Shown here in pieces: positions 48,506 to 64,000 of a stretch of DNA of 64,000 bases. The stretch comes from an uncultured Flavobacteriaceae bacterium. GTDB taxonomy: Bacteria > Bacteroidota > Bacteroidia > Flavobacteriales > Weeksellaceae. Position numbers and translations under genes: made by a program. Below the pieces are notes generated by a model, which was not told the DNA's origin, made no database searches, and was given only the letters and a program-made list of their open reading frames with translations. Location: NCBI GenBank assembly GCA_963530615.1, contig CAUSDX010000003.1, forward strand, positions 22,181 through 86,180, given 5' to 3'. Positions within the stretch are counted from its first letter, which is position 1, and every line of letters begins with the position of its first letter.

Positions 48506-48579
48506 GATCCGGTAGTTCAGTTGGTTAGAATGCCGCCCTGTCACGGCGGAGGTCGCGGGTTCGAGTCCCGTCCGGATCG
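48506..48579 (+). tRNA. tRNA-Asp (GTC)
   Basis: The 74-nt cloverleaf has acceptor gatccgg/ccggatc, a D-arm tagttcagttggttagaa, the anticodon loop ccTGTCAcg (anticodon GTC), and a T-arm gcgggttcgagtcccgt. CCA is not encoded. Confidence 0.9.
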
Positions 48580-48607
48580 CAAGATTTAATTTATTCCAAA
48601 GACTACT

Positions 48608-48681
48608 GATCCGGTAGTTCAGTTGGTTAGAATGCCGCCCTGTCACGGCGGAGGTCGCGGGTTCGAGTCCCGTCCGGATCG
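48608..48681 (+). tRNA. tRNA-Asp (GTC), identical second copy
   Basis: By eye this is the same 74-nt sequence as 48506-48579, with a 28-nt spacer between the two. Confidence 0.9.
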
Positions 48682-48684
48682 CAA

Positions 48685-49829: not shown

Positions 49830-50466
49830 GATGAATCGTGTTCATCTGTCTCAACACCCATTGATGTTTCTTTTTCAGAGCAGGAGTAGAATTTTTCGGG
49901 TCATAAGATTTCGGGTTTGGTAAAACTACAGCAATCCATGCTGCTTCTGATTTCGTCAAATCCTTTGCAGATTTTTGGAAATAATACTTTGCCGCTGCCT
50001 CTACCCCAAAAACACCCTGCCCCATCTCAATGGAATTCAAATAACGCTCTAAAATAATATCCTTACTCCAAAACTTTTCTATTACAAAAGTATAACCCAC
50101 TTCTAAACCTTTTCTTAGCCAACTTCTTCCATTCCAAAGAAAAATATTCTTTGCTGTTTGCTGAGAAATTGTACTTCCGCCGCGGATTTTACCCCCCTTT
50201 TGATTGTGGGCAATTGCCTTTTCTATAGCTGACACATCAAAACCTGAATGCGTGTAAAACTTCTGATCTTCAGAGGCGATAACCGCTTTTTTCACCCAAT
50301 CCCCCATTTCATCAAAAGAAATATAATCACGGTCTAATTTTTGGTATAAAATAACCCCTTCTATCTGAGTCCAAGTAATAATTGGATTAAAAAAACGCCC
50401 CCATGCTATTGCTAAAATATTTAAAACAATAACAACATAAACTATTTGCTTGATTACCTTGAACAT
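49822..50466 (-). CDS. mtgA: monofunctional biosynthetic peptidoglycan transglycosylase
   Basis: 214 aa with a TM anchor and the GT51 motifs ASEDQKFYTHSGFD, GGSTISQQTAKN and RYLN. Confidence 0.92.
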   Translation of the reverse strand: MFKVIKQIVYVVIVLNILAIAWGRFFNPIITWTQIEGVILYQKLDRDYISFDEMGDWVKKAVIASEDQKFYTHSGFDVSAIEKAIAHNQKGGKIRGGSTISQQTAKNIFLWNGRSWLRKGLEVGYTFVIEKFWSKDIILERYLNSIEMGQGVFGVEAAAKYYFQKSAKDLTKSEAAWIAVVLPNPKSYDPKNSTPALKKKHQWVLRQMNTIHLK

Positions 50467-50494
50467 CTTTTATTTTTTTATTAGAAATTGGGAG

Positions 50495-50502
50495 CAAAGA
50501 TA
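50495..50502 (-). promoter_or_regulatory. Bacteroidota -7 promoter box for mtgA (caaagata on the plus strand = TATCTTTG on the minus strand)
   Basis: Reverse-complement match to TAnnTTTG, 29 nt upstream of the mtgA start at 50466. Confidence 0.5.
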
Positions 50503-50617
50503 ATTTTTTTATTTCATCTCTTTTATAAAACCTAAAATTTCACAATTTTTTTTGAATAAATCAGATAAGAATCTTATCTTCGCGACTAAATTTTTACAAT
50601 AAATAAAGTATTGGCTT

Positions 50618-50846
50618 TTGTTCTGCTGTCCGAAAACTGGAAATTTTCATAACAACACAGAAACAATTAGTTTAATACTCACGCCATATAGGTGTGGGTT
50701 ATTTCTATTTTGTGTTGTAAGGTAATTCCAGTACCTCGGGCAACAAAAAAGAAACTCCCATACCTTTTTTTATTGTCCACAAAAAATAAAAAGAGTTAAT
50801 TTTATTCTGTTGCCCGAAAACTGGAAACTTTCATAATAGCAACACA
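50618..50846 (+). ncRNA. structured repeat block: a ~130-nt imperfect hairpin (arms 50618-50659 / 50708-50746, apical hairpin 50677-50699) plus a third direct arm (50802-50846). Candidate ncRNA/leader or REP-like element.
   Basis: Hand alignment and pairing of the three ~42-nt arms. No ORF is present. The strand is assigned only because the downstream island genes are on the plus strand. Confidence 0.4.
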
Positions 50847-51004
50847 GGATAGGTTAGCCTATGTAAGCGGAGGGACACGAATGCGGTTCCTTTGCTGTAT
50901 AGCCCCAGCTGTAAAAGAATAAGATTCTGCCCCAGCTCTTTTTGAGTAGAATATTCACATCTCCGATAGAGGCAGCGGAGATACCTATTCTGAAAGGCAA
51001 ACAG

Positions 51005-51628
51005 ATGGAAGGCAAACAAGTAAAATCCAAACAGCGAGTAGCAGACCACGGCGAGGTATTCACTGCCGAGAGAGAGGTAAAAGCTATGGTAGATTTGGTA
51101 TGGAAAGAGTTAGACAGAGGCAGTGCAGATAAACTGATGACCGCTACTTTTTTAGAGCCATCTTGTGGTTCTGGTAATTTTCTCATAGAAATTCTCCGCA
51201 GAAAGATAGATCTCCTTAAAAAAACAAAAAAAGATAAAGCCGAATATCGGTTTTATTTGGTGATGATTGCTGGTAGTCTCTATGGTGTAGAGCTCCTTCC
51301 TGATAATGCCCAAGAGTGCCGAGAAAGACTTCTCGCAGAGTTCCAAAAAGCATATCCCAAAAAAGAAGCCGTCTATGAAAGACTGATGAAGAGCATCGCG
51401 TTCGTCATCAGCCAGAATATCATTTGCGGTGATGCCCTTACCTACACTACCCCAGAGGGGGAGCCTATCCTCTTCACCCACTGGGTAGGCACAGGCATGC
51501 CAAAAATTACCGCCAATTACTTTGACTACGGCGAACTAACGAACAAAAAAATGGGAAAGATGTCTCTCTTTGCAGAGCATACCGTGAAAGACTCCGTGAC
51601 GAAGCACTACTTGGAACTCTCAGAATAG
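51005..51628 (+). CDS. SAM-binding DNA-methyltransferase-like protein lacking catalytic motif IV
   Basis: HGEVFTAEREVKAMVDL plus motif I FLEPSCGSGNFL (51149-51184), followed by YGVELLPD and NIICGDAL. No (D/N)PP(Y/F) motif occurs before the stop. The start was placed at the ATG at 51005; the track's TTG at 50942 would read through a 7-bp hairpin (atctccg...cggagat). Confidence 0.65.
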   Translation: MEGKQVKSKQRVADHGEVFTAEREVKAMVDLVWKELDRGSADKLMTATFLEPSCGSGNFLIEILRRKIDLLKKTKKDKAEYRFYLVMIAGSLYGVELLPDNAQECRERLLAEFQKAYPKKEAVYERLMKSIAFVISQNIICGDALTYTTPEGEPILFTHWVGTGMPKITANYFDYGELTNKKMGKMSLFAEHTVKDSVTKHYLELSE

Positions 51629-51649
51629 CCTAAAACCTTTTTTTCTCTC

Positions 51650-53227
51650 ATGAAAAATTACAATCCTGACATTCTCAACTGTCTTGCCAATCTGAGCAGT
51701 GATGAGGTCTTCACTCCGCCTAACATTGCTACCAAGATGCTGGATCTCCTACCACAGAAGCTCTTCTCTGACCCTAATGCCAAGTTCTTAGACCCTTTCT
51801 CCAAATCTGGTGTATTTTTAAGAGAAATAGCCAAAAGACTGCTGAAAGGTTTAGAAAGCCAAATCCCAGAATTGCAGGAGCGTATAGACCACATCATGCA
51901 CCACCAGCTCTATGGCATAGGCATCACGGAGCTTACCGCCTACATGAGCCGCCGTAGTCTCTACTGCTCCACTCGTGCCAATAGCAAGCACTCCGTTACT
52001 CACTTCCCAGATGAAGACGGCAACATCTTCTTTGAGGAAATCTCCCACACATGGGACAAAAACAGAAAATGCATCTACTGCGGTGTGAACCAAAAAGACT
52101 TTGGGGATGAAATAAGAGAGGGACTCTCTAAATATGCCTACCCCTTTATCCATAACCTTAACCCTTACGAAAACATGAACTTTGATGTTATTATAGGAAA
52201 TCCGCCTTACCACTTAAATGTAGGGAATGATAAAGAAAAAGGAAATAGCTCAAAAGCAAAAGCTATTTATCATCTCTTTATTGACCAAGCTATCAAAATG
52301 AACCCTAAATATATTTGTATGATTATACCAAGCCGCTGGATGACAAGAAGTACAGAGGGGGTATCTGAAAAATGGATAGATAAAATGCTAAGTTCTAATA
52401 AGTTTAGAATCATACATGATTTCTTGGATGCCAAAGGTATTTTCTCCGGAACACCTCCAAAAGGTGGAGTCAATTATTTCTTATGGGACAGAGATTACAA
52501 TGGGGAGTGTCATTATTATCTATATGAAAGTGCAAATAAACCTTCCTCTTATAGATTTGAAGCATTAGATAAAAATAATTCAGGTATTATCATCAGGGAT
52601 AGGATAGCCAACGATATATTAAAGAAAATATCAGAAGTTCATCAGGATTATATGAAAAATGGGGAGAATTTTTCTTCCTTAATTAGCCCAAAGGACTTTT
52701 TTACCAATAAACAATGGCTTACTTCTAGTTGGAATGGTTTTGCTAACACTCCTAATCAAGATTATAACATCAAATATTATCCTAATAAAATACTTCTAAA
52801 AAATGGCGCTAATTTTGGCTGGATTAACATCAACCAAATCCCTAAAAATAGAGAAACTAAAGACTTACATAAGGTATTTATTCCTGCCGCAGGAGGTTCG
52901 GGAACAGATACCCATGTTTTAGGACATCCTTTTTATGGTGAGCCTAATTCAGTGTGCTCACAAACATATTTGGTAATAGGATATAATCAAGACTTTACCA
53001 AAGAAGAGTGTTTAAATATTATCTCCTACATCAATACTCGTTTTTTTAGATATTTAGTTTCTATTAAAAAGAAAACCCAAAATGGAGCAAGAGGCGTTTA
53101 CCAATTTGTCCCTATACAAGATTTTGACAAGCCATGGACAGATGCAGAGCTTTATGATAAATACAGCCTCACAGAAGAGGAAATTGCCTATATAGAGAGT
53201 TTGGTAAGTGATAAAAGAGAGGAGTAA
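51650..53227 (+). CDS. N6-adenine DNA methyltransferase, Eco57I/TaqI-like gamma class, with C-terminal target-recognition region
   Basis: 525 aa. SSDEVFTPP, a motif I variant FLDPFSKSGVFL (51785-51820), the catalytic DVIIGNPPY (NPPY at 52199-52210), and a typical C-terminal tail (PWTDAELYDKYSLTEEEIAYIE). Confidence 0.85.
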   Translation: MKNYNPDILNCLANLSSDEVFTPPNIATKMLDLLPQKLFSDPNAKFLDPFSKSGVFLREIAKRLLKGLESQIPELQERIDHIMHHQLYGIGITELTAYMSRRSLYCSTRANSKHSVTHFPDEDGNIFFEEISHTWDKNRKCIYCGVNQKDFGDEIREGLSKYAYPFIHNLNPYENMNFDVIIGNPPYHLNVGNDKEKGNSSKAKAIYHLFIDQAIKMNPKYICMIIPSRWMTRSTEGVSEKWIDKMLSSNKFRIIHDFLDAKGIFSGTPPKGGVNYFLWDRDYNGECHYYLYESANKPSSYRFEALDKNNSGIIIRDRIANDILKKISEVHQDYMKNGENFSSLISPKDFFTNKQWLTSSWNGFANTPNQDYNIKYYPNKILLKNGANFGWININQIPKNRETKDLHKVFIPAAGGSGTDTHVLGHPFYGEPNSVCSQTYLVIGYNQDFTKEECLNIISYINTRFFRYLVSIKKKTQNGARGVYQFVPIQDFDKPWTDAELYDKYSLTEEEIAYIESLVSDKREE

Positions 53228-53244
53228 CTTAAAAAATAAAAATT

Positions 53245-53907
53245 ATGAAAAAAATAGAATTAAAAAAAGAATATTACTATGAAATATTTTGTAATAATAT
53301 GGGAGATATTCCTAACTATAAAGTAGTTAAATATTTAGGAAATCATCAAATACAATTTTTGGATAATAATGAAATTATAGAATTAGATGAAACTCTAATA
53401 ACTCATGCCGATAAGCAACTAAAAAATGGAAAAAATATTACCTATGCCAAAGGGATTTTCGGTTTTAGAGATATATCAATAGAATCCAAACATTTAGAAA
53501 AATTAGGTTTTATAAAAAAAGAAGGAAATTTATATGAAATAGATAATCCTAATATAAAAATTATGATGTATTTAGCAATATTAGGAGATGAAAACTTTAA
53601 TTACATCGGAAATATTGTAATGAATAGCAAAGAATATAATCATCTTATTCAAAAAATAGAAGATAAAGAAGAATGGAAAAATAAATATAAAATTGTCTTT
53701 AATAATACATTATACATTATTGATAATACTAATATTATAGATTATTTATACTACGGAAAGCCAATGAAGTTAAATTTAGATGCACATAATGAAATAGTAA
53801 CAATAATAAATGAAAATTTCAAAGGAATACGAAATATAAATGAATTATTTGAAAGATTAGAAAAAGAAGGAGTTAAAATAGAAAATAAAGATGAAATACT
53901 AATATGA
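53245..53907 (+). CDS. hypothetical protein (N/I/K-rich, extremely AT-rich gene)
   Basis: 220-aa ORF, 17 nt after the MTase stop on the same strand. No motif recognised. Confidence 0.55.
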   Translation: MKKIELKKEYYYEIFCNNMGDIPNYKVVKYLGNHQIQFLDNNEIIELDETLITHADKQLKNGKNITYAKGIFGFRDISIESKHLEKLGFIKKEGNLYEIDNPNIKIMMYLAILGDENFNYIGNIVMNSKEYNHLIQKIEDKEEWKNKYKIVFNNTLYIIDNTNIIDYLYYGKPMKLNLDAHNEIVTIINENFKGIRNINELFERLEKEGVKIENKDEILI

Positions 53908-53919
53908 ATGAAATACTCG

Positions 53920-54127
53920 CTCTCCACCAAGTATAAAACAAGCAAAGCGGAGTATGAAATACCCAAGACCAAGTGTAAAATAAGCGAGACCGAGTGGTAT
54001 TTTTAGAAGATTGAGCAGTAAAAATGCAAAACGGAGTGTAAAATATCAAAAACCAAACAGTATATTTAGAATAATGAGTAGTAAAAATCATTTTTTTTAG
54101 AATAATTCAAAAACTGAGTAAGAAATA
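53920..54127. repeat. 21-bp phased degenerate tandem array, about 10 units (core RAGTRTAAAAYA)
   Basis: Unit anchors at 53931, 53952, 53973, 53994, 54015, 54036, 54057 and 54078 are exactly 21 bp apart. A weaker unit lies near 54118. Confidence 0.85.
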
Positions 54128-54144
54128 TTAAAAATTAAAAAATT

Positions 54145-54801
54145 ATGACAAAGAAAATCTACAAAACCAATGAAGAAATGCTCCAAAATGCTCAAGTGCT
54201 TTTTGAGACCATAGAGAAAAACCAAGACATCGCCCAAAAATTAGAGGACTACGGCTACCCTACGGCAGAAATCGCCAAGGGCAAAAAGCTCTACACCACC
54301 GCACAAACTCTCTACGGCACCAACAAGAAAGAAACCGAAGAAGAACGCATCGCTTACCAGAAATTCAGCTCCGCTATGGACGAGCTTACCAAAACCTATG
54401 CCGAGCATCGCAACAAAGCCAAGCTTATCTTCAAGGAAAACGAAACCGCGAAAATCAGCCTTGCCCTCAAAGGAAGCCCTGCCACTGCCATCACCACACT
54501 TCTGGAAGAAATCACCCAGTTTTATAAAAACCTCCATGAGCAAGAAGCTCTCAGAACACCTCTTATCAGAGTGAAAATCACCACAGAAAACATCACCGAC
54601 CAACAGGCGAAAACCTCCCAAGTGAAAAATCTATACTCTACCTATGCACAAGAAAAAAACGAAAGTCAACAAGCGACCAAAGACAAGAATAAAGCCTTTG
54701 CCGACCTTGATAAATGGACCCGCGAACTCTACGCCTACGCCAAGTATGCCCTTGCCGAACATAGCCAGTTCTTACAAATATTTGGCAAAACCGTGAAATA
54801 A
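54145..54801 (+). CDS. hypothetical protein, predicted all-helical with an internal duplication
   Basis: 218-aa ORF in the GC-richer part of the island. Two similar ~90-aa halves are visible (LYTTAQTLYG...AMDELTKTYAEH and LYSTYAQEKN...AFADLDKWTRELYAY). No known motif recognised. Confidence 0.6.
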   Translation: MTKKIYKTNEEMLQNAQVLFETIEKNQDIAQKLEDYGYPTAEIAKGKKLYTTAQTLYGTNKKETEEERIAYQKFSSAMDELTKTYAEHRNKAKLIFKENETAKISLALKGSPATAITTLLEEITQFYKNLHEQEALRTPLIRVKITTENITDQQAKTSQVKNLYSTYAQEKNESQQATKDKNKAFADLDKWTRELYAYAKYALAEHSQFLQIFGKTVK

Positions 54802-54851
54802 AATTTTGGCAAAAAGATAGAATATATCAACTTTCTTAAAAACCGAATAAA

Positions 54852-57449
54852 ATGAATTTTTTTACACAAAATAACATCCCTAAAATATATGCCTACACCG
54901 ATGAGCATTTCCCAGGTATGCTAAAAGTAGGCTATACTACCAAAACCGCCGCCGAACGAGTAAAAGAGCAATACCCCGTGAAGATGCCTCGCCAGACTTG
55001 GGAAATCGTTTTAGAAGAAGTAGCCACAAGAGAAAATGGCACTTATTTTACTGACCATGACCTGCATAAAAGATTGGAAAAAAAAGGCTTTCACCGAGAA
55101 AATGGAGAATGGTTTCTCTGCACTCTGAAAGATTTAGAAGCCATCATCATAGAAGAAAAAAAAGGCATCGTCAACACTGAAAACCGCTCCCAAAACTTCA
55201 GCATGAGACCAGAGCAAAAAGAAGCCGTAGAGCGTACGGCAAGATACTTCACTGCCGTGAGAGAGGAGGGCTACACCCCTCACTTCCTTTGGAATGCCAA
55301 AATGCGTTTCGGAAAGACTTTTGCGACATATCAACTTGCCCTAAAAATGGGCTGGACTAAGGTACTCGTGCTGACCTTCAAACCTGCTGTCCTCAGTGCA
55401 TGGCGAGAAGACCTCCAAGAACATATAGACTTCCAAAACTGGCAGTTCGTTTCCAATAAAGAAGAAGACCTCAACCCAAAGGAGATTGACAAAAATAGAC
55501 CCTTCGTGTATTTCGGCTCTTTCCAAGATCATTTAGGTTTAGATAAAAAAACAGGTCTTATCAAACCTAAAAATGAATGGCTACATGATGTAGAATGGGA
55601 CTGCGTGATCTTTGATGAATACCACTTCGGTGCATGGAGAGATAAATCCAAAAAAATCTTTGAAGCCATAGAAGGTACTGATGACAAAGATAAAGAAGAA
55701 AAAAAACGACTAAAAGAAGAACTAAAAGAATTCAAAGAACAAGAAGAGGAACAAAAAGAGTTAGACACCGAAGAATCTGGAAAAACAGAAGACCTCTCCT
55801 ACTTTGATGAAAACCTCATTACCATCTCTACCAAACATTACCTCTATCTTTCAGGGACACCCTTCCGTGCCTTGGCAGATGGGGAGTTCATAGAAGAACA
55901 AATCTATAACTGGACCTACTCCGATGAGCAAAAAGCCAAAGCTGAATGGAAAGGCGAGAATAATCCCTATGCCTCTCTCCCAGAAATGATAATGATGACC
56001 TATCAGCTCCCTGGTGAAATCAAGGACATCGCCTCTAAAGGAGAATTTAATGAATTTGACCTCAACACTTTCTTCTCTACCGAAAAAGCCGAAAATGAGC
56101 ATAACAGCGAGAAAAAAACCAAAAAAGGGAAGAGAAATGAAGAAAATACCGTCTTCAAATACCAAGACGAAGTGCAAAAATGGCTAAACTTTATCCGTGG
56201 GCAGTTTTTAGGAAATGCTGAAGCACAGCTCAAACAAGGAAAAAGTAAAGCACCAATGCCTTTCTCCGATAGCCGACTTTTGGACATCTTACAGCATACC
56301 TTTTGGTTCTTACCGAATGTATCCTCTTGCTATGCCATGGCAAACCTTCTGAAAAGCCCTAAAAATCAAGCCTTTTTTGGAGATTATAACATCGTGGTCT
56401 GTGCAGGAGCAGAAGCAGGAATAGGCGTAGAAGCCCTAAAACCTGTGGCAAAAGCCATGGGCGACCCCCTCAAAACCAAAACCATCACCCTCTCCTGCGG
56501 AAAACTCACCACAGGGGTTTCTGTCTCACCTTGGTCAGGGATTTTCATGCTGAGAAACTCTTCCAGCCCAGAGACTTATTTCCAATCCATCTTCCGAGTG
56601 CAAACTCCTTGGGTCATTAAAAACCCTAATGGAGAAACTCCAAATGAGCGAGTCATCATCAAAAACAAATGTTATGTGTTTGACTTTGACCCTAACCGAG
56701 CATTGAAACAAGTGGTATCCTATGCTCAAAAACTAAATACAGACGCAAGCATACCTTCGGAAGAGAAAATAACGGAACTTATCAGTTTCTTACCTATCTT
56801 GGCTTATGATGGGGAGAATATGACAGAAATAGATGCTTTAAAAGTATTAGAAATTGCCCACAATGGGACTACCGCTACCTTACTTGCCAGAAGATGGGAA
56901 TCGGCTCTGCTCGTCAATGTAGATAATATTACCTTGGAAAAACTTCTCAAAAACCAAGAAGCCATGGACATATTAGAAAATATAGAAGGATTTAGAAATT
57001 TAGGGCAAGATATAGAAACCATCATCACTAAATCTAACGAGATAAAAAAAAATAAACAAAAAGGAACGACTAAAGATCCCAAAGAAAAAAAGAAACTTAG
57101 TGAGGAGGAAAAGGAATACAAAAGCAAAAGAAAACAGATTCAGGATAAACTTCTAAAATTCGCGACCAGAATCCCTGTATTCATGTATCTCTCCGAATAT
57201 AGAGAGCAGACTCTGAGAGATGTCATCACCCTCTTAGAACCTGAACTCTTCAAAAAAGTAACTGGGATAGAGGTGAAAGATTTTGAACTCTTAGAAAGAT
57301 TAGGACTATTCAACAGCAATCTGATGAATGATGCCGTGGAAAAATTCAAAGCCTATGAAGACAGCTCCCTTGCCTACACAGGAAAGAAAACTTATGGTAA
57401 TCTCAGAGTAGGTTTATTTGATACCACAAAAACTATTACAGAAGAATAA
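54852..57449 (+). CDS. T5orf172/GIY-YIG-like nuclease domain fused to an SF2 (restriction Res-type) helicase
   Basis: 865 aa. The N-terminus is IYAYTDEHFPGMLKVGYTT...ERVKEQ...DHDLHKRL...NGEWF (T5orf172 pattern). Helicase motifs are Walker A FGKT (55311-55319), DEYH (55614-55625), LSGTPF and motif VI QSIFRVQT. There are K/E-rich insertions. Confidence 0.8.
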   Translation: MNFFTQNNIPKIYAYTDEHFPGMLKVGYTTKTAAERVKEQYPVKMPRQTWEIVLEEVATRENGTYFTDHDLHKRLEKKGFHRENGEWFLCTLKDLEAIIIEEKKGIVNTENRSQNFSMRPEQKEAVERTARYFTAVREEGYTPHFLWNAKMRFGKTFATYQLALKMGWTKVLVLTFKPAVLSAWREDLQEHIDFQNWQFVSNKEEDLNPKEIDKNRPFVYFGSFQDHLGLDKKTGLIKPKNEWLHDVEWDCVIFDEYHFGAWRDKSKKIFEAIEGTDDKDKEEKKRLKEELKEFKEQEEEQKELDTEESGKTEDLSYFDENLITISTKHYLYLSGTPFRALADGEFIEEQIYNWTYSDEQKAKAEWKGENNPYASLPEMIMMTYQLPGEIKDIASKGEFNEFDLNTFFSTEKAENEHNSEKKTKKGKRNEENTVFKYQDEVQKWLNFIRGQFLGNAEAQLKQGKSKAPMPFSDSRLLDILQHTFWFLPNVSSCYAMANLLKSPKNQAFFGDYNIVVCAGAEAGIGVEALKPVAKAMGDPLKTKTITLSCGKLTTGVSVSPWSGIFMLRNSSSPETYFQSIFRVQTPWVIKNPNGETPNERVIIKNKCYVFDFDPNRALKQVVSYAQKLNTDASIPSEEKITELISFLPILAYDGENMTEIDALKVLEIAHNGTTATLLARRWESALLVNVDNITLEKLLKNQEAMDILENIEGFRNLGQDIETIITKSNEIKKNKQKGTTKDPKEKKKLSEEEKEYKSKRKQIQDKLLKFATRIPVFMYLSEYREQTLRDVITLLEPELFKKVTGIEVKDFELLERLGLFNSNLMNDAVEKFKAYEDSSLAYTGKKTYGNLRVGLFDTTKTITEE

Positions 57450-57471
57450 GCTTTATTCTATATATTCCCCT

Positions 57472-57503
57472 AAAAAAACCGCTATTGTTTATAGCGGTTT
57501 TTT
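57472..57503 (+). terminator. intrinsic terminator closing the island operon
   Basis: 8-bp stem accgctat/atagcggt flanked by an A-run and a T-run. Confidence 0.7.
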
Positions 57504-57551
57504 CTTTATTCATTCCTATAAAAATATCTTTTTCACTTAATATATCTTATG

Positions 57552-57589
57552 CTAAATAAAAAATAATTTGTCTTAAAAAGACAAATTAT
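57552..57589 (-). terminator. intrinsic terminator after sprA
   Basis: 11-bp stem ataatttgtct/agacaaattat, followed by a T-run on the minus strand. Confidence 0.65.
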
Positions 57590-57596
57590 TTTATTT

Positions 57597-60500
57597 TCAA
57601 TTTGTATTTCCTCCAAAGGTAAAATTAGCTGTAATCCCTGCCCTTATCGTGGATAGCGGATATGCCGTAGAAACTTTATATTTGGTTACTAACTGATTAT
57701 AAAACAATCTCATTTGGAAATTTTGAGAAAAATTATAATCTGCAGAGAAATTTACCCCCAATATTTTTTGTCCACCCGTTACCTGTATATCTTCCTTTAA
57801 TATATTGGTAACTCTGGTTCTATTATCTCTCAAAGAAATATCCATCTTCAAGTTCAAATCACTTTTAATCGTTCTACTCTTACCTCTAATGGTCATTCTC
57901 ATCTTCAAATCTTTAATAATATACCCCAATCCAAAAATATACTCTGAACCTGAATCTTCCGTCAAGGTATAATTCTGAACTCCCAAAACATAGGCTCTAT
58001 TCTTGTTATACATCGCACGGATTTGCATGTTATTTCTCATCGTAACATCTGCCCCTAATAATGGAGCGAACTCCTCCACATAGCCCACTTGAGAAAAAGT
58101 ATAAGGATTAATATAATTATTATTCGTGTCTCTATCCGTAACTCCATTGGTTTGATAATTATAATAATCTGAGCTTGATTGAATCCCCGAAGTGGTATAA
58201 GTGGCCTTATAACCATGTAGTAAATCAAATTTTGCAAAATGTTTATTAATTATCGGCAAATTCTTTAAACCAGAATAAATTACCTGCCAATTGGGAAGTG
58301 GAAATTTAGATTTCGTAGGGTTTTCTTTACCCACTTTTTTCCCTCCTATTGCTGACTTAAATGCAGGAATCAAAACATAAGAATTTGCTAATCCATAACC
58401 ATCTACAAAGCCATCAGTGTTCAATGCACCTCCAAAACTTTGAGAAATCTCTCTTGCATTCTGCACCAGATTCATATATAAATCCCTACCATCTTTGAAG
58501 GAAGTCCCTAAAATCATATCAGAATAAGAAAAACTCATCATCTCCTTAGCATAGGATAGTTGGTCATTCACCAAAATATTATAATTCGTATGTGATAAAG
58601 AACGCGACTGATTTTTCAAAAAATTCAAGTCTATTCTTAAATCATTCATCGGTTGAATTTGAATATTCCCTGTCAAAGCTTTGGTATTCATCTGGGTGTA
58701 GGCATCTGTCATTAAATCCGATGCAGAAACCAAATTACGCTCTATCATGAGCCTACGAATATCAGATTGAGAACCTAATAAAAACCCATAAGTAGGCCCT
58801 CCGCCATTACTTCCATATCCAAAGAAATTCGGAGAAGAAAGAATCCCTGGCAATGATGTTCCACTTGTTTCATTATAAGAAATATTCGCTTGTTTAAAAG
58901 AAGTCAAAGCATACAAAATAGACTGTATTGGTGTCAACTTATTTTTGAATTGATAATTCTTCGTATTCTCTACTTTCTTTCCTTTGCTTCTCTTTTCAGC
59001 AATATCCACATTGTATTTTTCCATCACTGCAATCTCTGCTCTCCTTGCAGATATAGTTTTCTCTAAATTTTGGAAATATTTGAATTTACCTAATAAAGAA
59101 GGAATATTCACAGAAGCCGTAGCCACTGTATTTACACTATTTTGAGCTAAATTTCCTAAATCTGCCGAAGAAAGCACCGTAGAACGAGCCGACCAATTAT
59201 ACTGAATGCCTCTTCCTACTTCGGCATTGATGAAATCCAAATATGGGAAATACTCAAAAGGCAATCTATAATTCATCTGAATTCTATGATTATACAATAC
59301 TGGTCTTCCTACCTTAAACGGATCCTTAAAGATAGAACGAGTATTCAAATCTACTACCGACAAATGGTCATTGAGTGTTCTGGTATATGAATTTACATCT
59401 AATTTTAAGGATTTTGTCAAATTAAACCCTAAATTATACTGCCACCCGAAATAAAAAGTTCTCGTTCGGGTCGTTTGAAAATCTGTTCCAGCACCAGAAG
59501 TTCCCAACAATATCGCATCTATATTTCTATATTGCAATTCGTTATAATTTCTATCTATTTCCGTTCGGAAAGAAAATCTTGTAGGAATAGGATTGAGATT
59601 AAACTCTTTCACCCAATTAAGATATTTTGCAGATTTTGCGGTATCGCTTATCAGTTTATTGAATGGCCTGATATTCACTGGCTTAAAATTATAGGAATAA
59701 TCTATATATCCACGAAGATACTGACGATAATTTTTAGTGGTGTGAATATCACGATAAAAATCATCATTATATACCGCTGTAACGGATAAATTTTCTACAT
59801 CATAAAACCGCTGTTTCTTTTGTGGATTGGTTCTTTCCTTTCTCATATTAACCACTCCTATGCTTCTCTGCTGAGAGTAAGTTCTTACTACTTTTTTCAG
59901 TTCATTTTTTATAGGACTTTTACTCAGCTCTACATCATTATCAAGAGGGTTATATTTGGGGTCTTCTATACTTTGGGTATAAGAATAATTCACAGGAATT
60001 TTCATTCCAAATTTTTCTGGTAAAAATTTATCTAAATTTACCGTAGTATCAATATGAAATTGAGAAACTTCCGTTTGAGACCTCTCTGATGGCTTCTGTG
60101 TAATCGTTCCAAAACCTACCGAAGACATTGCCCCTGTGGCATTTACCAACGCAAAATCTCCTAAATTAAAATTAAGACTTGCATTTGCTGCATAACCACT
60201 TTTATTCTCTGTCCCAGAAACTCTAACCTCATTCATCCACAATACAATATCTTTAGAAATACTGCTCGCATCTTGATTTCTTACCCCCATTACAATACTG
60301 GTGATATTCCCTAAACTTGGGCGACCTTTCACATAAATTTTCTTATTCTCATTCCCATAAGAAGTATCAGTATATCTGCTATCTATTACTGCTGAAGCCC
60401 TATCTCTTCTACCTTTAATATCCGTAAATTCTTGCAAATCAAGAGCAATAGTATTTTCTGTAGGCCAAATTTCATAAGGTGTTCTTGCATTCGCTGAAGT

Positions 60501-63500
60501 ATATTTTAATGATGCTTCATATTCATAATAATTATCCGTAGCATCACTTCCTAAACGAATAAAAAATTTGGTCTTGTCATCTAATTGAGTAGAAGTTACA
60601 TTTTTCAAATCCTGAGCATGAACAAACATTTCTAACTTTTCATATCTCCTTAAATCCAAAGACACATTTTTATACAAAGCTCGAGCATCATTACTTAATC
60701 CTGTAACTTTCATATACAAAGAGCTTTCATTCGCTCTCTGTGAACCTGCATTCCCACTAAATACCTCCCTATCTATCCCTGGTGGCAACATATATGGCGG
60801 TGTCCCCATAGAGTTTTCTTCCAAATTCACACTACCTACATCTACATTAGAAGCATCTATCATTCCAAAGCCTTCATTTGTGGTATTATCTACCGCGACA
60901 GGCTTAGTGTATTTTCTCCAATCAGAACGCACCAAATCAAATGTCCCAAATCTCAAAGTAGAAGTCTCATCAAATCCTGTCAAAAGCAGTCTCGCAAAAC
61001 GAACATTATTCAAAACATCTCTGCTATGCTCCCCTGCTGTGGTATCAAACTGCCCCACAGGAATGCGGAATAGATACCATTTATTCCTTCCAGAACGCCC
61101 ATCTTCAAAGGTAGTTTGCACTTCTTTAACATCTACAATATTATTTTGACCTAAAACTAAATTATTTCTATTTAAATCAATAGTATATTGATTATAATTT
61201 TCATATTGGTCAAGGTTATAATCCCCATTAATATCTTCTACATCAGGCGTTTGCGATGACACCTCCAAAGGCCCAGAAGCGGAATTCCCATCTGGATTCC
61301 TAAAATAACGATAACGCTCCACCACAGAACTTGCCATGCTTCCTTGAAATCTATCAGACAGAAAATACACAAAATCATCAGATGCTGGGTCTAACTCATT
61401 GGTAACTGGATTCACAAACGATGTTCCAAATTTCTCATGCTCACCTGCATTATTTAATCCATCATACCCCACATCTTGAGCCTTTCTGTCAGCCCCTTCC
61501 GAAGAAAAAGTATAAAGTATAGGTGATACACTTGGTTGGGTTCCCCAGTTGGTCGTTGTCGTTACCGAAGGAGATGAATCCGTAGGTAATCCATTTTCAT
61601 ATTGTAAATGACCATCTTTCAAAACATCTTCAGAAATATTCCCTAAATGAAGCAATAATTTAGGATTTGCTCCCAAATTTCCTCCATCAGCATAAGGGTC
61701 CATCATCCAAAATTCTACATATTCTATATTAGAAGTTGTAAAATTAGACACCGATATTGGTCTCATCAGCCCTGCCCATCTATCTTGAGTAGCTTCATGA
61801 TTAGGATTAAAATTATAAGGACCTCTTTCCTTTGGATAATAAGAAATATCAAAAGTATTGGTAAAAGTTTCTTCTCCCGCTACATAATCTCTAGTATTAT
61901 ACAACTCACTGAGTCTCACTCTACGAGACATGTGATTAGACACGCTTTGCGTAGAAATACCATTAGGTGCAGTGCCACCAATGCCATAAAATCTCGGGTC
62001 AATATTATACCACGAAATAAGCCCTCTTCCATAGCCATTTACAATACTATTATTTACTCCTGCATTCCTAAATAATGCATCTCTTGTATTTTGTTCAGGT
62101 TTGGAAGCTAACCCCCACATTGCAGGGTCTTTGAGGGATATTTTAGAAGAACTTTGCTCAAAATCATCTATATAAGACTGGTTCTGAGCATTTTTACTCT
62201 GCCCTGGTATCAAATATGCAGCTTCCACTCTGAAATTTATATTTGATGGAGCACTAGTCTTAATCCAAGGAATTTTATTGGTAAATCTTGTCAAGAATGG
62301 AGCTTCATTACTATACAAAACATTAACTCCCAACATGGTGTTATTCACAGCCTCTTGTCCATACTGCACTTTTTGAGTTAATGGCGTCTCTCTATAATTA
62401 ACTGCTGTGGCACCTATTAACAAATTTTCATTGATTTTCCTTTCTAAATTTAATCCCAAAAATCTCTTTCTTTGAGTATTAAAATTTAATTGATTTTCAA
62501 GACTAATGTTTATTGCCTGACCAGATTGTTTTATCGTTTCATTAATAATTGTAACACTCCCTAACAAATAATCTACCGTATAATCTACCCCCTCTATCAA
62601 GGTTACTCCATTAGAGGTTACTTTTACAGAGCCTTGCGGAATATTGATTGCTCCCAAAGAAATTCCAGAAGATGATGTGCCTTTATACCTTCCTTCTAAA
62701 GTATATCTTTGAGCCAAATTATTCTGTGCTGCTACGGATTTTAATTGACGATAAAGATCAGTAAAAACATACCGAGGATTATTAGCCCCCAATACATTTT
62801 CTAAATGCCTACCGAAAGGTTGAGTTTTCGTAAAAATCAATTTTCCGTTTTCTCTGTCAATGGTCAAACCTTCCACCATATCAAATAATCCATCTCCATA
62901 AGTCCCATTAGAATTTTGCTGAAAATCCCCATTAAGATTCAATCTATCCCAATTGAATAAACTCAACAAATTAGTATCCTGCACATTCGTATTTGGTAAA
63001 TAATTAACCTTACCATTATTGGGGTCTCTATAGTACACTCCCATCAAGAAATCGCTGGTGTCTATATTCGCCGTATTAAGAGAATAAATATTCTTCATCA
63101 TCAAGTCCCACATCGGAGAACTTGTTTTCATGGAAGTATTTGGCTTTAATAATTTGGTAATCAACACAGAAGAATTATCCTCTGAAAATTCACCGACTTT
63201 ATATACATTAGAATCTCCACTAACAGTATATGAAAATGACACAGCCAAAAGCTGATTATCATTTAGCCTTTGGTTCAATGAAATATACCCTAATTTCGGA
63301 TGGAATTTATACTCGTTTTCATTTAATTTTCTTGCTCTTCTCGTGAAAACAAAATTCTCTCCTTCTTGGTAAGGCTGATTTCCTCCCGCAGTGATGTCAT
63401 ACAAAGACTGCCCTTTTATGCTATTATAAGCAGAAGTTACATCTCTAATTCCTGCTAAATTTGTAATATCTTGATAAAGATTGTTCTGTGAATTACTTGG

Positions 63501-64000
63501 GTAGGTAGTTGTTGCCATTCCTTCTCCAAGGTCTCTTACCGCCACAATACCTTTTTGACTTTCCACATTGATAGTACCTTGATTAAGCACCCAAACTTCC
63601 ATTCTAGTAATGCTAATTTTAGAATTTACCAATGGATATTGGCTTAATGCACCATCATAAGCATTATTAAAATAATGCCCTATAAAGAAATGCTGATTGT
63701 CTTCATAATCTACTGCATTCAGCTTAAAAGTTTGTGAAACACCACCATTCTGAGCAACTACCGTTCTTGACTCTCCCTGCTGTTGAGAAAGCACCAATGT
63801 TCCCTTAGTTTTCCCTAATTGAAACTCTGTTTTTACTCCAAAAAGAGATTCAGAACCGCGAATTAAACTTGTAGAAAGAGGCATATTGATATTCCCAAAT
63901 TCTACTTTTTTGATAATTCTATCCTCTGGATCTTTACTTTCTTTATTATTTGATGAATTGTTTTGAGCATTTCTCGAAGAACTTCCCCTTGGTTGCCACA
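57597..64000 (-). CDS. sprA: T9SS translocon / gliding-motility cell-surface protein SprA (partial, N-terminus outside window)
   Basis: The giant ORF is longer than 2130 aa within the window. The frame stays open upstream of the track's ATG (63884) to position 64000 (hand-translated ...KKVEFGNINMPLSTSLIRGSESLFG). Size and composition fit the flavobacterial SprA beta-barrel. Confidence 0.8.
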   Translation of the reverse strand, partial: WQPRGSSSRNAQNNSSNNKESKDPEDRIIKKVEFGNINMPLSTSLIRGSESLFGVKTEFQLGKTKGTLVLSQQQGESRTVVAQNGGVSQTFKLNAVDYEDNQHFFIGHYFNNAYDGALSQYPLVNSKISITRMEVWVLNQGTINVESQKGIVAVRDLGEGMATTTYPSNSQNNLYQDITNLAGIRDVTSAYNSIKGQSLYDITAGGNQPYQEGENFVFTRRARKLNENEYKFHPKLGYISLNQRLNDNQLLAVSFSYTVSGDSNVYKVGEFSEDNSSVLITKLLKPNTSMKTSSPMWDLMMKNIYSLNTANIDTSDFLMGVYYRDPNNGKVNYLPNTNVQDTNLLSLFNWDRLNLNGDFQQNSNGTYGDGLFDMVEGLTIDRENGKLIFTKTQPFGRHLENVLGANNPRYVFTDLYRQLKSVAAQNNLAQRYTLEGRYKGTSSSGISLGAINIPQGSVKVTSNGVTLIEGVDYTVDYLLGSVTIINETIKQSGQAINISLENQLNFNTQRKRFLGLNLERKINENLLIGATAVNYRETPLTQKVQYGQEAVNNTMLGVNVLYSNEAPFLTRFTNKIPWIKTSAPSNINFRVEAAYLIPGQSKNAQNQSYIDDFEQSSSKISLKDPAMWGLASKPEQNTRDALFRNAGVNNSIVNGYGRGLISWYNIDPRFYGIGGTAPNGISTQSVSNHMSRRVRLSELYNTRDYVAGEETFTNTFDISYYPKERGPYNFNPNHEATQDRWAGLMRPISVSNFTTSNIEYVEFWMMDPYADGGNLGANPKLLLHLGNISEDVLKDGHLQYENGLPTDSSPSVTTTTNWGTQPSVSPILYTFSSEGADRKAQDVGYDGLNNAGEHEKFGTSFVNPVTNELDPASDDFVYFLSDRFQGSMASSVVERYRYFRNPDGNSASGPLEVSSQTPDVEDINGDYNLDQYENYNQYTIDLNRNNLVLGQNNIVDVKEVQTTFEDGRSGRNKWYLFRIPVGQFDTTAGEHSRDVLNNVRFARLLLTGFDETSTLRFGTFDLVRSDWRKYTKPVAVDNTTNEGFGMIDASNVDVGSVNLEENSMGTPPYMLPPGIDREVFSGNAGSQRANESSLYMKVTGLSNDARALYKNVSLDLRRYEKLEMFVHAQDLKNVTSTQLDDKTKFFIRLGSDATDNYYEYEASLKYTSANARTPYEIWPTENTIALDLQEFTDIKGRRDRASAVIDSRYTDTSYGNENKKIYVKGRPSLGNITSIVMGVRNQDASSISKDIVLWMNEVRVSGTENKSGYAANASLNFNLGDFALVNATGAMSSVGFGTITQKPSERSQTEVSQFHIDTTVNLDKFLPEKFGMKIPVNYSYTQSIEDPKYNPLDNDVELSKSPIKNELKKVVRTYSQQRSIGVVNMRKERTNPQKKQRFYDVENLSVTAVYNDDFYRDIHTTKNYRQYLRGYIDYSYNFKPVNIRPFNKLISDTAKSAKYLNWVKEFNLNPIPTRFSFRTEIDRNYNELQYRNIDAILLGTSGAGTDFQTTRTRTFYFGWQYNLGFNLTKSLKLDVNSYTRTLNDHLSVVDLNTRSIFKDPFKVGRPVLYNHRIQMNYRLPFEYFPYLDFINAEVGRGIQYNWSARSTVLSSADLGNLAQNSVNTVATASVNIPSLLGKFKYFQNLEKTISARRAEIAVMEKYNVDIAEKRSKGKKVENTKNYQFKNKLTPIQSILYALTSFKQANISYNETSGTSLPGILSSPNFFGYGSNGGGPTYGFLLGSQSDIRRLMIERNLVSASDLMTDAYTQMNTKALTGNIQIQPMNDLRIDLNFLKNQSRSLSHTNYNILVNDQLSYAKEMMSFSYSDMILGTSFKDGRDLYMNLVQNAREISQSFGGALNTDGFVDGYGLANSYVLIPAFKSAIGGKKVGKENPTKSKFPLPNWQVIYSGLKNLPIINKHFAKFDLLHGYKATYTTSGIQSSSDYYNYQTNGVTDRDTNNNYINPYTFSQVGYVEEFAPLLGADVTMRNNMQIRAMYNKNRAYVLGVQNYTLTEDSGSEYIFGLGYIIKDLKMRMTIRGKSRTIKSDLNLKMDISLRDNRTRVTNILKEDIQVTGGQKILGVNFSADYNFSQNFQMRLFYNQLVTKYKVSTAYPLSTIRAGITANFTFGGNTN

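Follow-up and report, generated by a model that had tools for sequence, protein, structure and literature searches.

We analyzed a 64,000-nucleotide (nt) stretch of DNA from an uncultured Flavobacteriaceae bacterium (NCBI GenBank assembly GCA_963530615.1, contig CAUSDX010000003.1, positions 22,181 to 86,180 of the forward strand; hereafter, the window), in which a cluster of inverted and direct repeats lies upstream of a restriction-modification-like gene cassette. The region at positions 50551-51004 is, on balance, probably a promoter-proximal leader RNA of the sense strand that acts in cis as a conformational switch or attenuator. It comprises a promoter, a long rod-shaped RNA (unit 1) and a second structured unit (unit 2). 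Comparison with homologous sequences showed that the rod is a conserved, single-copy, sense-strand structured RNA, that it has two mutually exclusive folds, both backed by covariation, and that it is co-inherited with the cassette in Flavobacteriales. The first-pass annotation of this DNA had proposed a structured noncoding RNA or switch-like leader tied to defence-like genes, and this proposal was supported by co-occurrence in six lineages, by covariation of the helices and by the pairing of a third arm, A2. From these sequence features we infer that the leader has a regulatory role.

A rod-shaped RNA follows a Bacteroidetes-type promoter

The three related arms described previously, A1 (50618-50659), its inverted copy A1' (50708-50746) and the direct copy A2 (50802-50846), were all present at these positions, as was the apical 9-bp hairpin (50677-50699). 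The A1/A2 direct repeat detected using a repeat finder was real (42 nt, 86% identity without gaps, spacing 184 nt), with 36 of 42 positions identical in the ungapped alignment, slightly fewer than the 38 of 42 first counted. The same program detected A1' and A2 as an inverted repeat (18 nt, 83%). Further, an outer A/U-rich inverted repeat (50596-50608 with 50764-50776; 13 nt, 92% complementary) lengthened the rod to approximately 181 nt. The arm core occurred twice in the window (A1 and A2; chance expectation, 0), with no dispersed copies, and a sensitive BLAST search of the window with the whole element returned no further copy.

The folding test called for by the first-pass annotation showed that the rod folds far better than shuffled sequences. 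The + strand of 50610-50760 reached −46.6 kcal/mol, compared with −27.8 ± 3.7 kcal/mol for the shuffles (z = −5.1), and none of 200 shuffles equaled it. The − strand was almost equally stable (z = −4.9), and the strand therefore had to be decided by comparing relatives.

Unit 1 (50596-50776, + strand) was delimited by its fold z-score, its match to a covariance model of the family and 17 homologues alike in architecture. It consists, in order, of a leader, the 5' closing arm, core5, mid-stem, apical hairpin, mid-stem, core3, the 3' closing arm, a tail and a U-run, all read from the + strand. The 5' strand of the closing stem, a1 (UCUGCUGUCCG, 50622-50632), pairs with 50737-50745. Core5 (50633-50651) contains AAA, the 5' strand of helix H2 (ACUGGAA, 50636-50642) and AUUUUCAUA, and can alternatively form the mini-hairpin GAAAA[CUGGAAA]UUUUC. 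In minimum free energy (MFE) folds, the mid-stem (50652-50662 with 50708-50718, within 50652-50718) surrounds the apical hairpin, which is formed by X (ACUCACGCC, 50677-50685), the loop AUAUA and X' (GGUGUGGGU, 50691-50699). The segment comprising core3 and a' (50719-50745) contains AAGGUAA, the 3' strand of H2 (UUCCAGU, 50726-50732), ACCU and the closing strand CGGGCAACA (50737-50745), and core3 has its own alternative, the mini-hairpin GGUA[AUUCCAG]UACC. The tail (CUCCCAUACC, 50755-50764) is followed directly by seven U residues (50765-50771).

The promoter upstream (50551-50582, + strand) is of the Bacteroidetes type, with a −33 element TTTG (50551-50554), a 20-nt spacer and the −7 box TATCTTCG (50575-50582). 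This box was found where the first-pass annotation had placed it, is near-consensus and is conserved in relatives. Its sequence and position are kept in loci L011 and L014 (L numbers denote the loci of relatives), and it is a perfect TAnnTTTG in Capnocytophaga canimorsus L045 (TATATTTG) and Weeksellaceae L053 (TATCTTTG). Further, homology between the window and the L011-type species starts exactly at the promoter, at 50551. The putative transcription start lies near 50588-50591.

The apical hairpin together with the U-rich stretch that follows it (UUAUUUCUAUUUU, 50677-50710) gave a terminator-like score, and several homologues (L013, L032, L045, and L054) have the same arrangement. This arrangement could make transcription stop early, midway through the RNA.

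The rod is conserved and its helices covary

Homologues were gathered using exact sequence patterns and gene neighborhood, and the taxonomic breadth and gene associations reported here are thus biased samples. We collected 17 distinct homologues, all with the same rod fold, from Flavobacteriaceae, Weeksellaceae, Riemerella, Capnocytophaga, Chitinophagaceae, Vicingaceae, Ignavibacteria, Verrucomicrobia, and metagenome contigs. A search for an exact 20-mer of the arm in the genomes of 185,579 species, one GTDB representative each, detected one locus per matching genome, among them a complete Vicingaceae chromosome. The matches were to five uncultured Flavobacteriaceae; the two-armed architecture was also present in the complete Vicingaceae chromosome and in metagenome-assembled genomes (MAGs) of Verrucomicrobia, Ignavibacteria, and Chitinophagaceae, and the other matches were due to chance. 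A two-anchor pattern applied to metagenome contigs yielded eight further real loci. The viral, plasmid, and phage collections contained no match to the rod, and we rejected a phage, plasmid or viral origin on this basis.

Ten homologues folded individually formed the same rod (z = −5.1 to −8.5). From base to tip, it consists of the closing stem, an internal loop of 3-4 and 4-5 nt, the 7-bp helix H2, a loop of 7-9 and 5-8 nt, a long mid-stem and the apical hairpin, and the asymmetry of its internal loops is conserved across phyla. Sequences of the mid-stem and apical hairpin are unalignable and completely different between lineages; their pairing is always kept. Further, rod RNAs were 88-94% identical between loci without any similarity of flanking DNA. 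Among ten near-identical strains, population variants were too sparse to be informative. An approximately 100-nt repeat (containing CATACTGAACTTGTTTCAGTATCACATAAGTTTTAAA) occurs three times ahead of the Weeksellaceae rod (L053, 7192-7470); it is REP- or MITE-like (repetitive extragenic palindrome; miniature inverted-repeat transposable element) and unrelated to the rod.

When full-length rods were aligned using MAFFT and RNAalifold, only the core was recovered because the interior was unalignable. Covariation was therefore counted on 5' and 3' segments of the 17 sequences anchored at H2, with the interior excised and replaced by NNNN, an analysis device and not a natural sequence. In this alignment 91.5% of core cells were paired compared with 71.5% in shuffles, and the covariation score was 0.552, compared with 0.160 in shuffles and at most 0.14 when the partners were slid by 1-3 columns. 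Changes on both sides were present in 13 of the 16 core pairs, and in eight of nine pairs of the closing stem. Thus, the rod helices covaried across homologues, which was the test of compensatory change proposed in the first-pass annotation. The variants of H2 include CUGGAAA/UUUCCAG, CUGGUAAA/UUUACCAG, CUACCAAA/UUUGGUAG, and GGUCGAA/UUCGACC. Distant copies vary parts that the search patterns held fixed; across them, H2 reads ACUGGAA/UUCCAGU, UCUGGUA/UACCAGA, UCUACCA/UGGUAGA, and GGUCGAA/UUCGACC, and in C. canimorsus the closing stem has UUG/CAA at its top in place of CCG/CGG.

The sense strand was more stable in 16 of the 17 homologues (mean −56.0 kcal/mol compared with −47.6 kcal/mol for the antisense strand) and contained more G-U pairs (mean 6.5 compared with 3.3). 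Further, a covariance model built from 15 sequences, with a quick calibration that makes its E-values rough, detected one sense match per locus over 450 kb (78-120 bits), untrained sequences included, whereas antisense scores were 16-33 bits. In the window it detected a single rod (50616-50754; 115.8 bits sense, 29.6 bits antisense). The stability of the sense strand, the excess of G-U pairs and the covariance-model scores therefore indicate an RNA read from the + strand, and the asymmetry in stability and G-U pairs ruled out a strand-neutral DNA palindrome.

A second fold excludes the rod

The tail of the window rod has two possible partners, the leader (GUAUUGG, 50608-50614) and X' (50691-50699). 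All lineages have a tail that duplicates the 5' strand of the upper rod and hence can pair with X'. Predicted duplexes between tail and X' were more stable for cognate pairs (mean −23.7 kcal/mol) than for non-cognate pairs (−15.8 kcal/mol), and the sequences fall into at least four unrelated classes. Two double substitutions (GUAUUGG/CCCAUAC to GCGUUGG/CCCACGC) distinguish L011 from the window and preserve both the leader:tail and the X':tail helices. Further, the stem of the mini-hairpin around the 3' strand of H2 covaries (GGUA/UACC, GGCA/UGCC, GGCU/AGCC, and CGGU/ACCG).

The 3' half alone folded into a long hairpin capped by this mini-hairpin, with z = −2.9 to −8.0 in 10 of 11 lineages (−4.9 in the window). 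At least five U residues follow the tail directly in 12 of the 17 homologues; the U-tract is weak or absent in L012, L015, L033, L039, and L043. The tail:X' helix would close the long 3' hairpin ahead of the U-run, a putative intrinsic terminator. The comparison therefore showed two mutually exclusive folds, the rod and the 3'-half hairpin. The 5' half-hairpin was weakly supported (z = −0.2 to −4.0), and we did not retain it as a strongly selected structure. We also set aside, by reasoning alone, a single tertiary fold (a tail:X' pseudoknot added to the rod, or a four-way junction with kissing loops), which we judged sterically implausible.

The conserved nucleotides in the loops of the rod (AAA...UUU on the 5' strand and GG...CC on the 3' strand) supply the stems of both mini-hairpins and are all accounted for by this alternative pairing. 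No separate conserved pocket is evident, although a protein or kinetic signal is conceivable.

A duplicated arm can compete for the 3' strand of the rod

Sequence comparison showed that A2 is a duplicated 5' half of the rod fused to a second structured domain, which ends at the start codon of the cassette. The complete A2 unit (50779-50847, + strand) is a paralogous copy of the leader, a, core5, and b segments, repeats unit 1 directly and is conserved in six lineages. It contains a2 (UCUGUUGCCCG, 50806-50816), AAA, ACUGGAA (50820-50826), and b2 (50838-50847). The family covariance model matched this unit weakly (50800-50913; 15.9 bits). The 3' domain of unit 2 (50848-51004, + strand; fold z = −3.2) forms several hairpins up to the first start codon and is likewise conserved in the six lineages; the two small hairpins noted previously (50849-50862 and 50866-50896) were both present in its MFE fold. 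Double changes were found in 11 of 46 predicted pairs of unit 2 including the A2 arm.

The first-pass annotation had suggested that A1' has two mutually exclusive partners, and this property is conserved. In the window, the predicted duplex of a' is −19.0 kcal/mol with a2 and −12.9 kcal/mol with a1, and the a2:a' duplex was at least as stable as a1:a' in all six lineages (ΔΔG, 0 to −10.5 kcal/mol). Each lineage has a2/a' sequences of its own (UGUUGCCCGA/UCGGGCAACA in the window, CUGCUGUCCU/AGGACAGCAG in L053, and UUCUGAUGUUAG/CUAACAUCAGAA in L051), and A2 is thus an equal or better partner that co-evolves with a'. Forcing H2 onto A1 or onto A2 shifted the energy of the whole leader by only 0.6-5.9 kcal/mol, with either sign, so that the two pairings are nearly isoenergetic. 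In the MFE fold of the full window leader, core3 and a' are already paired with A2. Further, a pairing of a2 with the first cassette codons is predicted for both the window and L011 (GGCAAACAAG and GGCAGACAGG).

A 15-nt tandem duplication (TGAAAGGCAAACAGA/TGGAAGGCAAACAAG) straddles the first start codon of the cassette at 50991-51020. Its upstream copy supplies GGCAAACAG, which is complementary to the a2 arm; L011 has just the copy inside the open reading frame (ORF; GGCAGACAG).

The leader is co-inherited with a restriction-modification-like cassette

The cassette (51005-57449, + strand) was identified by Pfam, PADLOC, and NCBIfam matches as a split type IIG-like restriction-modification system. 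The sequence 51005-53907, previously treated as one ORF, comprises three: a 207-amino-acid (aa) piece of an MmeI-type methyltransferase N-terminus (51005-51628), an Eco57I-type methyltransferase (51650-53227) and a 220-aa protein without an assigned function (53245-53907). These are followed on the same strand by a PQLLE-family protein (54145-54801) and a nuclease-helicase of T5orf172 (GIY-YIG-like) and ResIII type (54852-57449). Judged from their sequences, the five proteins together resemble a type IIG restriction enzyme split into genes. The same gene order was found in Capnocytophaga, Riemerella, Weeksellaceae, a Clostridia-like genome, and Pasteurellaceae. The split of the methyltransferase is conserved: the approximately 210-aa protein has approximately 8,000 homologues (E ≤ 1e-5), and the best 120 of these were mostly 200-260 aa long and came from Bacteroidota, Pasteurellaceae, the Clostridia-like genome, and others.

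Loci of relatives were found using homologues of the first cassette protein. Cassettes preceded by a rod were found in C. canimorsus (73% identity of the first protein), the Flavobacteriaceae MAG L051 (72%), the L011/L048 species (76%), Riemerella anatipestifer (49%), a Weeksellaceae genome (50%), and the metagenome contig L054 (52%). The promoter, rod, and unit 2 all precede the cassette in six lineages (the window, L011/L048, L051, C. canimorsus, R. anatipestifer, and Weeksellaceae), in which rod, unit 2, and cassette co-diverged as a block; L054 has a rod without unit 2 that ends approximately 29 nt before the ATG. The neighbors of the cassette vary: mtgA and sprA in the window, a tRNA and HMG-CoA reductase genes in the L011/L048 species and L051, a cation efflux gene in C. 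canimorsus, tsaE in Riemerella, and leuS in the Weeksellaceae genome. Thus, the sequences showed co-inheritance of the rod with the cassette in Flavobacteriales.

Three homologous cassettes, those of Capnocytophaga sp. ARDL2, the Clostridia-like genome, and the Pasteurellaceae genome, lack a rod. In place of the rod, Capnocytophaga sp. ARDL2 (L049, 7843-7897) has a heptamer repeat, (GCGTTCA)8, and a hairpin. The Clostridia-like locus (L055, 5798-5975) has a resolvase gene beside an approximately 130-bp segment flanked by the inverted repeats CCCATAAAGTGTGGGTT/AACCCACACTTTGT, which makes the segment a candidate invertible promoter. The Pasteurellaceae cassette has neither the heptamer repeat nor the resolvase-linked inverted repeat. 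The putative on/off devices in L049 and L055 suggest that the cassette is generally kept under on/off control.

In L014 (contig CAUTLL010000046.1), the promoter is fused directly to unit 2 between mtgA and sprA. The flanks of the locus are 93-95% identical to those of the window, compared with 98% for the 3' domain of unit 2. The segments present in the window and absent here are 50608-50790 (the rod) and 51004-57522 (the cassette), and unit 2 can therefore persist alone. This arrangement may reflect either two deletions or an ancestral state. Further, the island DNA had been thought to begin right after A2, whereas the comparison places the start of cassette-specific sequence at the first ATG; the G+C content rises from 0.34 to 0.44 at approximately 51000.

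At the far end of the cassette in L011 (6240-6420), the promoter, the arm, the beginning of unit 2, and the 5' end of the methylase gene recur as a second, decayed copy, which suggests replacement of the cassette or a tandem insertion by homologous recombination.

Rods outside the cassette

In L012, L013, L015, L018, L033, L039, L043, and L054, the tail is followed at a distance of 25-60 nt by the start of a co-directional ORF, which leaves no room for a separate promoter. There were thus eight independent contexts with a close ORF on the same strand, and in the cassette lineages the ORF follows directly after unit 2. In L018, the start codon lies 9 nt after the U-run. The ORFs downstream of rods outside the cassette encode unrelated lipoproteins or secreted proteins, a LytTR protein, and response regulators. 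We looked for a shared downstream gene or synteny among the stand-alone rods and rejected both, since the downstream proteins are unrelated and the flanks have no DNA similarity. The rod also precedes unrelated genes in other phyla and is therefore not specific to defence genes.

Mobile genes often lie near rods, namely tyrosine integrases (L015 and L033) and genes of the Bro-N, KilA-N, IS1, and IS1595 types. Two tandem tyrosine integrases of the Arm-DNA-bind_5/SAM_5 type (L033, 6496-7722 and 9518-10615) lie upstream of the rod and on its strand, and L015 has one in a position matching this pair. Judging from these positions, the rod gene may be an integration target in Chitinophagaceae-like genomes.

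A proposed switch and its alternatives

The leader has the same-strand position, a terminator-like hairpin with a U-tract and the conserved exclusive alternative fold of an attenuator. In the mechanism that we propose, the RNA would adopt either the full-length rod, with leader:tail, a:a', H2, b:b', and X:X' helices, or two half-molecule hairpins, of which the 3' half (X'-b' with a'-tail) would abut the U-run in the manner of a terminator. The choice of partner for the 3' arm (A1, tail or A2) would decide between a stop at 50771, which would yield an approximately 180-nt RNA, and read-through. It would also decide whether A2 remains available for closing unit 2 over the region where the first gene begins. 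The outcome would be on/off or timed expression of the cassette, and folding kinetics, a protein, temperature or a small molecule are candidate inputs.

Several observations weigh against this mechanism. The rod is the predicted MFE fold by 8-21 kcal/mol over the tail:X' state and would zip up co-transcriptionally, which leaves unexplained what would favor the terminator hairpin. The leader:tail helix also abuts the U-run in the rod state, so that both states might terminate. A conserved unpaired ligand pocket was sought in the conserved loops of the homologues, and none was evident. The pairing of a2 with the start region is not clearly kept in C. canimorsus, and L014 keeps unit 2 without the rod or cassette. 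Further, the genes downstream are functionally heterogeneous and suggest no common signal, and the sampling by pattern and neighborhood biases both the breadth of the family and its association with the cassette.

The rod might instead be a stand-alone small RNA acting in trans, such as a protein sponge, a 6S-like binder of RNA polymerase or a self-masked antisense RNA, whose gene is a hot spot for mobile DNA and variable genes; the cassette and A2 would then be passengers, or A2 a target or mimic. We consider this rather unlikely. The promoter and the terminator-like end in most lineages would fit such an RNA, as would a single copy per genome, the 88-94% identity of rods amid unrelated flanks, and the adjoining integrases and genes of the Bro-N, KilA-N, IS1, and IS1595 types. 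The self-hairpin of the 3' strand further recalls 6S RNA, which rearranges upon synthesis of its product RNA (pRNA). However, the 6S-like rod suggested by the first-pass annotation was not borne out. At E ≤ 10, Rfam models of 6S (RF00013) and 6S-Flavo (RF01685) matched none of the rods of the window, L033, and L041, and a permissive scan of 50400-51100 returned noise from microRNA models and no 6S, 6S-Flavo or Flavo-1. Local alignment of the rod with the validated 6S RNA of Bacteroides thetaiotaomicron (BTnc017, from the supplement of PMC7366714) scored 15, compared with a shuffle mean of 16.2. Further, a 6S-type central bubble has approximately 10 or more unpaired nucleotides per strand, whereas the largest loop of the rod has only 7-9 nt (5') and 5-8 nt (3'), and a 7-bp helix lies between it and a second loop of 3-4 and 4-5 nt. 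A stand-alone RNA also leaves aside downstream ORFs that are too near the tail for promoters of their own, the co-divergence of rod, unit 2, and cassette as a block in six lineages, and the covariation by which A2 tracks a'. A cis-acting RNA for processive antitermination, such as put of phage HK022 or EAR of Bacillus, would promote read-through in acquired operons and would suit a conserved structured element without an obvious ligand pocket that lies near a promoter, ahead of acquired-looking genes and a 6.5-kb operon. We regard it as quite improbable, since no similarity to the Rfam families of put or EAR was found, the element's own end is a terminator-like hairpin, and two covarying folds and a third arm would be left unexplained.

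An element acting at the DNA level, namely a REP/BIME-like cluster (BIME, bacterial interspersed mosaic element), an invertible segment or an att-site duplication marking the insertion of the island, would account for the inverted and direct repeats, for the resemblance of L014 to a deletion between the A1 and A2 repeats, and for the integrases near the rods in L015 and L033; moreover, the Clostridia-like cassette seems to use a resolvase-linked inverted repeat. The findings make this explanation highly improbable. With one locus per genome among the 185,579 species' genomes in the exact 20-mer scan and one covariance-model match per locus, the REP/BIME cluster raised by the first-pass annotation was not upheld, and a REP or MITE was ruled out on copy number. 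The promoter (50551-50582) lies outside the repeats and no recombinase is encoded at 46-57.5 kb of the window, which excluded an invertible promoter. An att duplication or a split RNA gene was rejected as well, as no copy was found near 57450-57600, at the far end of the island, or elsewhere in the window and the cassette has no integrase. Nor do the strand asymmetry in stability and G-U pairs, the conservation of asymmetric internal loops across phyla, or the lack of matches in phage, plasmid, and viral collections fit a DNA-level element. A switch or attenuator in the leader thus remains the reading that we favor.

More tentatively, leaders of this kind, bistable between a rod and two hairpins, may gate acquired genes, restriction or defence cassettes among them, across phyla without a classical aptamer. 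In Flavobacteriales, the 3' arm is a perfect match to the duplicated A2, and the terminated product of approximately 180 nt would therefore also act on the read-through mRNA, as a self-titrating pair of small RNA and leader. Such a pair, if real, would set the timing or the on/off state of the restriction system. We hold this wider proposal to be possible, with distinctly less confidence than the cis-acting leader itself.

Relation to known regulators

The leader resembles trp-type four-segment attenuators and riboswitch platforms: it is a sense 5' leader in which the segments a, b-X, X'-b', and a'-tail can pair as 1:2 and 3:4 or as 2:3, the 3:4 hairpin is followed by a U-run, and the alternative helices are mutually exclusive and conserved. 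Unlike in attenuators, segments 1 and 4 of the rod also pair, so that the alternative to the terminator is a complete rod. Further, it has no leader peptide or recognizable ligand-binding core, it precedes functionally unrelated genes in three phyla, and in Flavobacteriales the duplicated 5' half adds a third competitor. With 6S and 6S-Flavo RNAs it shares a rod of 170-185 nt with variable closing and apical stems around a conserved center, a 3' strand that can refold into its own hairpin, its own promoter and a single copy; in contrast to 6S RNA, it immediately precedes co-directional ORFs and moves together with a gene cassette.

By analogy drawn from general knowledge, the two half-hairpins with complementary loops of approximately 7 nt (CUGGAAA and UUCCAG) are reminiscent of the guanidine-IV (mepA) riboswitch, CopA/CopT, and the HIV-1 DIS, and in guanidine-IV and kissing-loop systems loop pairing competes with or reshapes a terminator hairpin. 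The two folds of the RNA could plausibly interconvert through a kissing complex that matures into an extended duplex. Here, however, the loop-loop helix extends into a full intramolecular rod, and the likeness comes without similarity of sequence or model.

On/off control of restriction-modification systems, or the protection of a new host, is usually ascribed to C-proteins, invertible promoters or repeat tracts. As in phase-variable systems, the device lies upstream of the cassette, where relatives carry a heptamer repeat or an inverted repeat; unlike these, it would act at the RNA level without DNA rearrangement, and the window has no recombinase or repeat tract there. If our reading is correct, the rod represents a widespread RNA family absent from Rfam 15, with members in Bacteroidota, Ignavibacteriota, Verrucomicrobiota, and metagenome lineages; at gathering thresholds, Rfam 15 matched tRNAs and an unrelated Acido-Lenti-1 in the window and 14 loci, and no family at the rod. 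A search of open-access full-text literature with the core sequence found irrelevant primer matches only, although an unindexed description is possible. The leader would provide a concrete case, open to experiment, in which a restriction-modification or defence cassette is controlled at the RNA level and, because both exclusive folds covary, a clean model for RNA conformational switching. The rod occurs in C. canimorsus and R. anatipestifer, animal-associated species that are culturable and genetically studied, which makes experiments feasible.

Other features of the locus

A scan of the window for tRNA and tmRNA genes detected two identical tRNA-Asp(GTC) genes and nothing else. They lie in tandem (48506-48580 and 48608-48682), 2 kb upstream of the rod, and the pair is also present in L014. 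At the other end of the island, two terminators, each a hairpin followed by a T-run (57466-57495 and 57555-57595), separate the end of the cassette from the convergent sprA gene (57597-63884, − strand). The right boundary of the segment absent from L014 (approximately 57522) falls between these two terminators.

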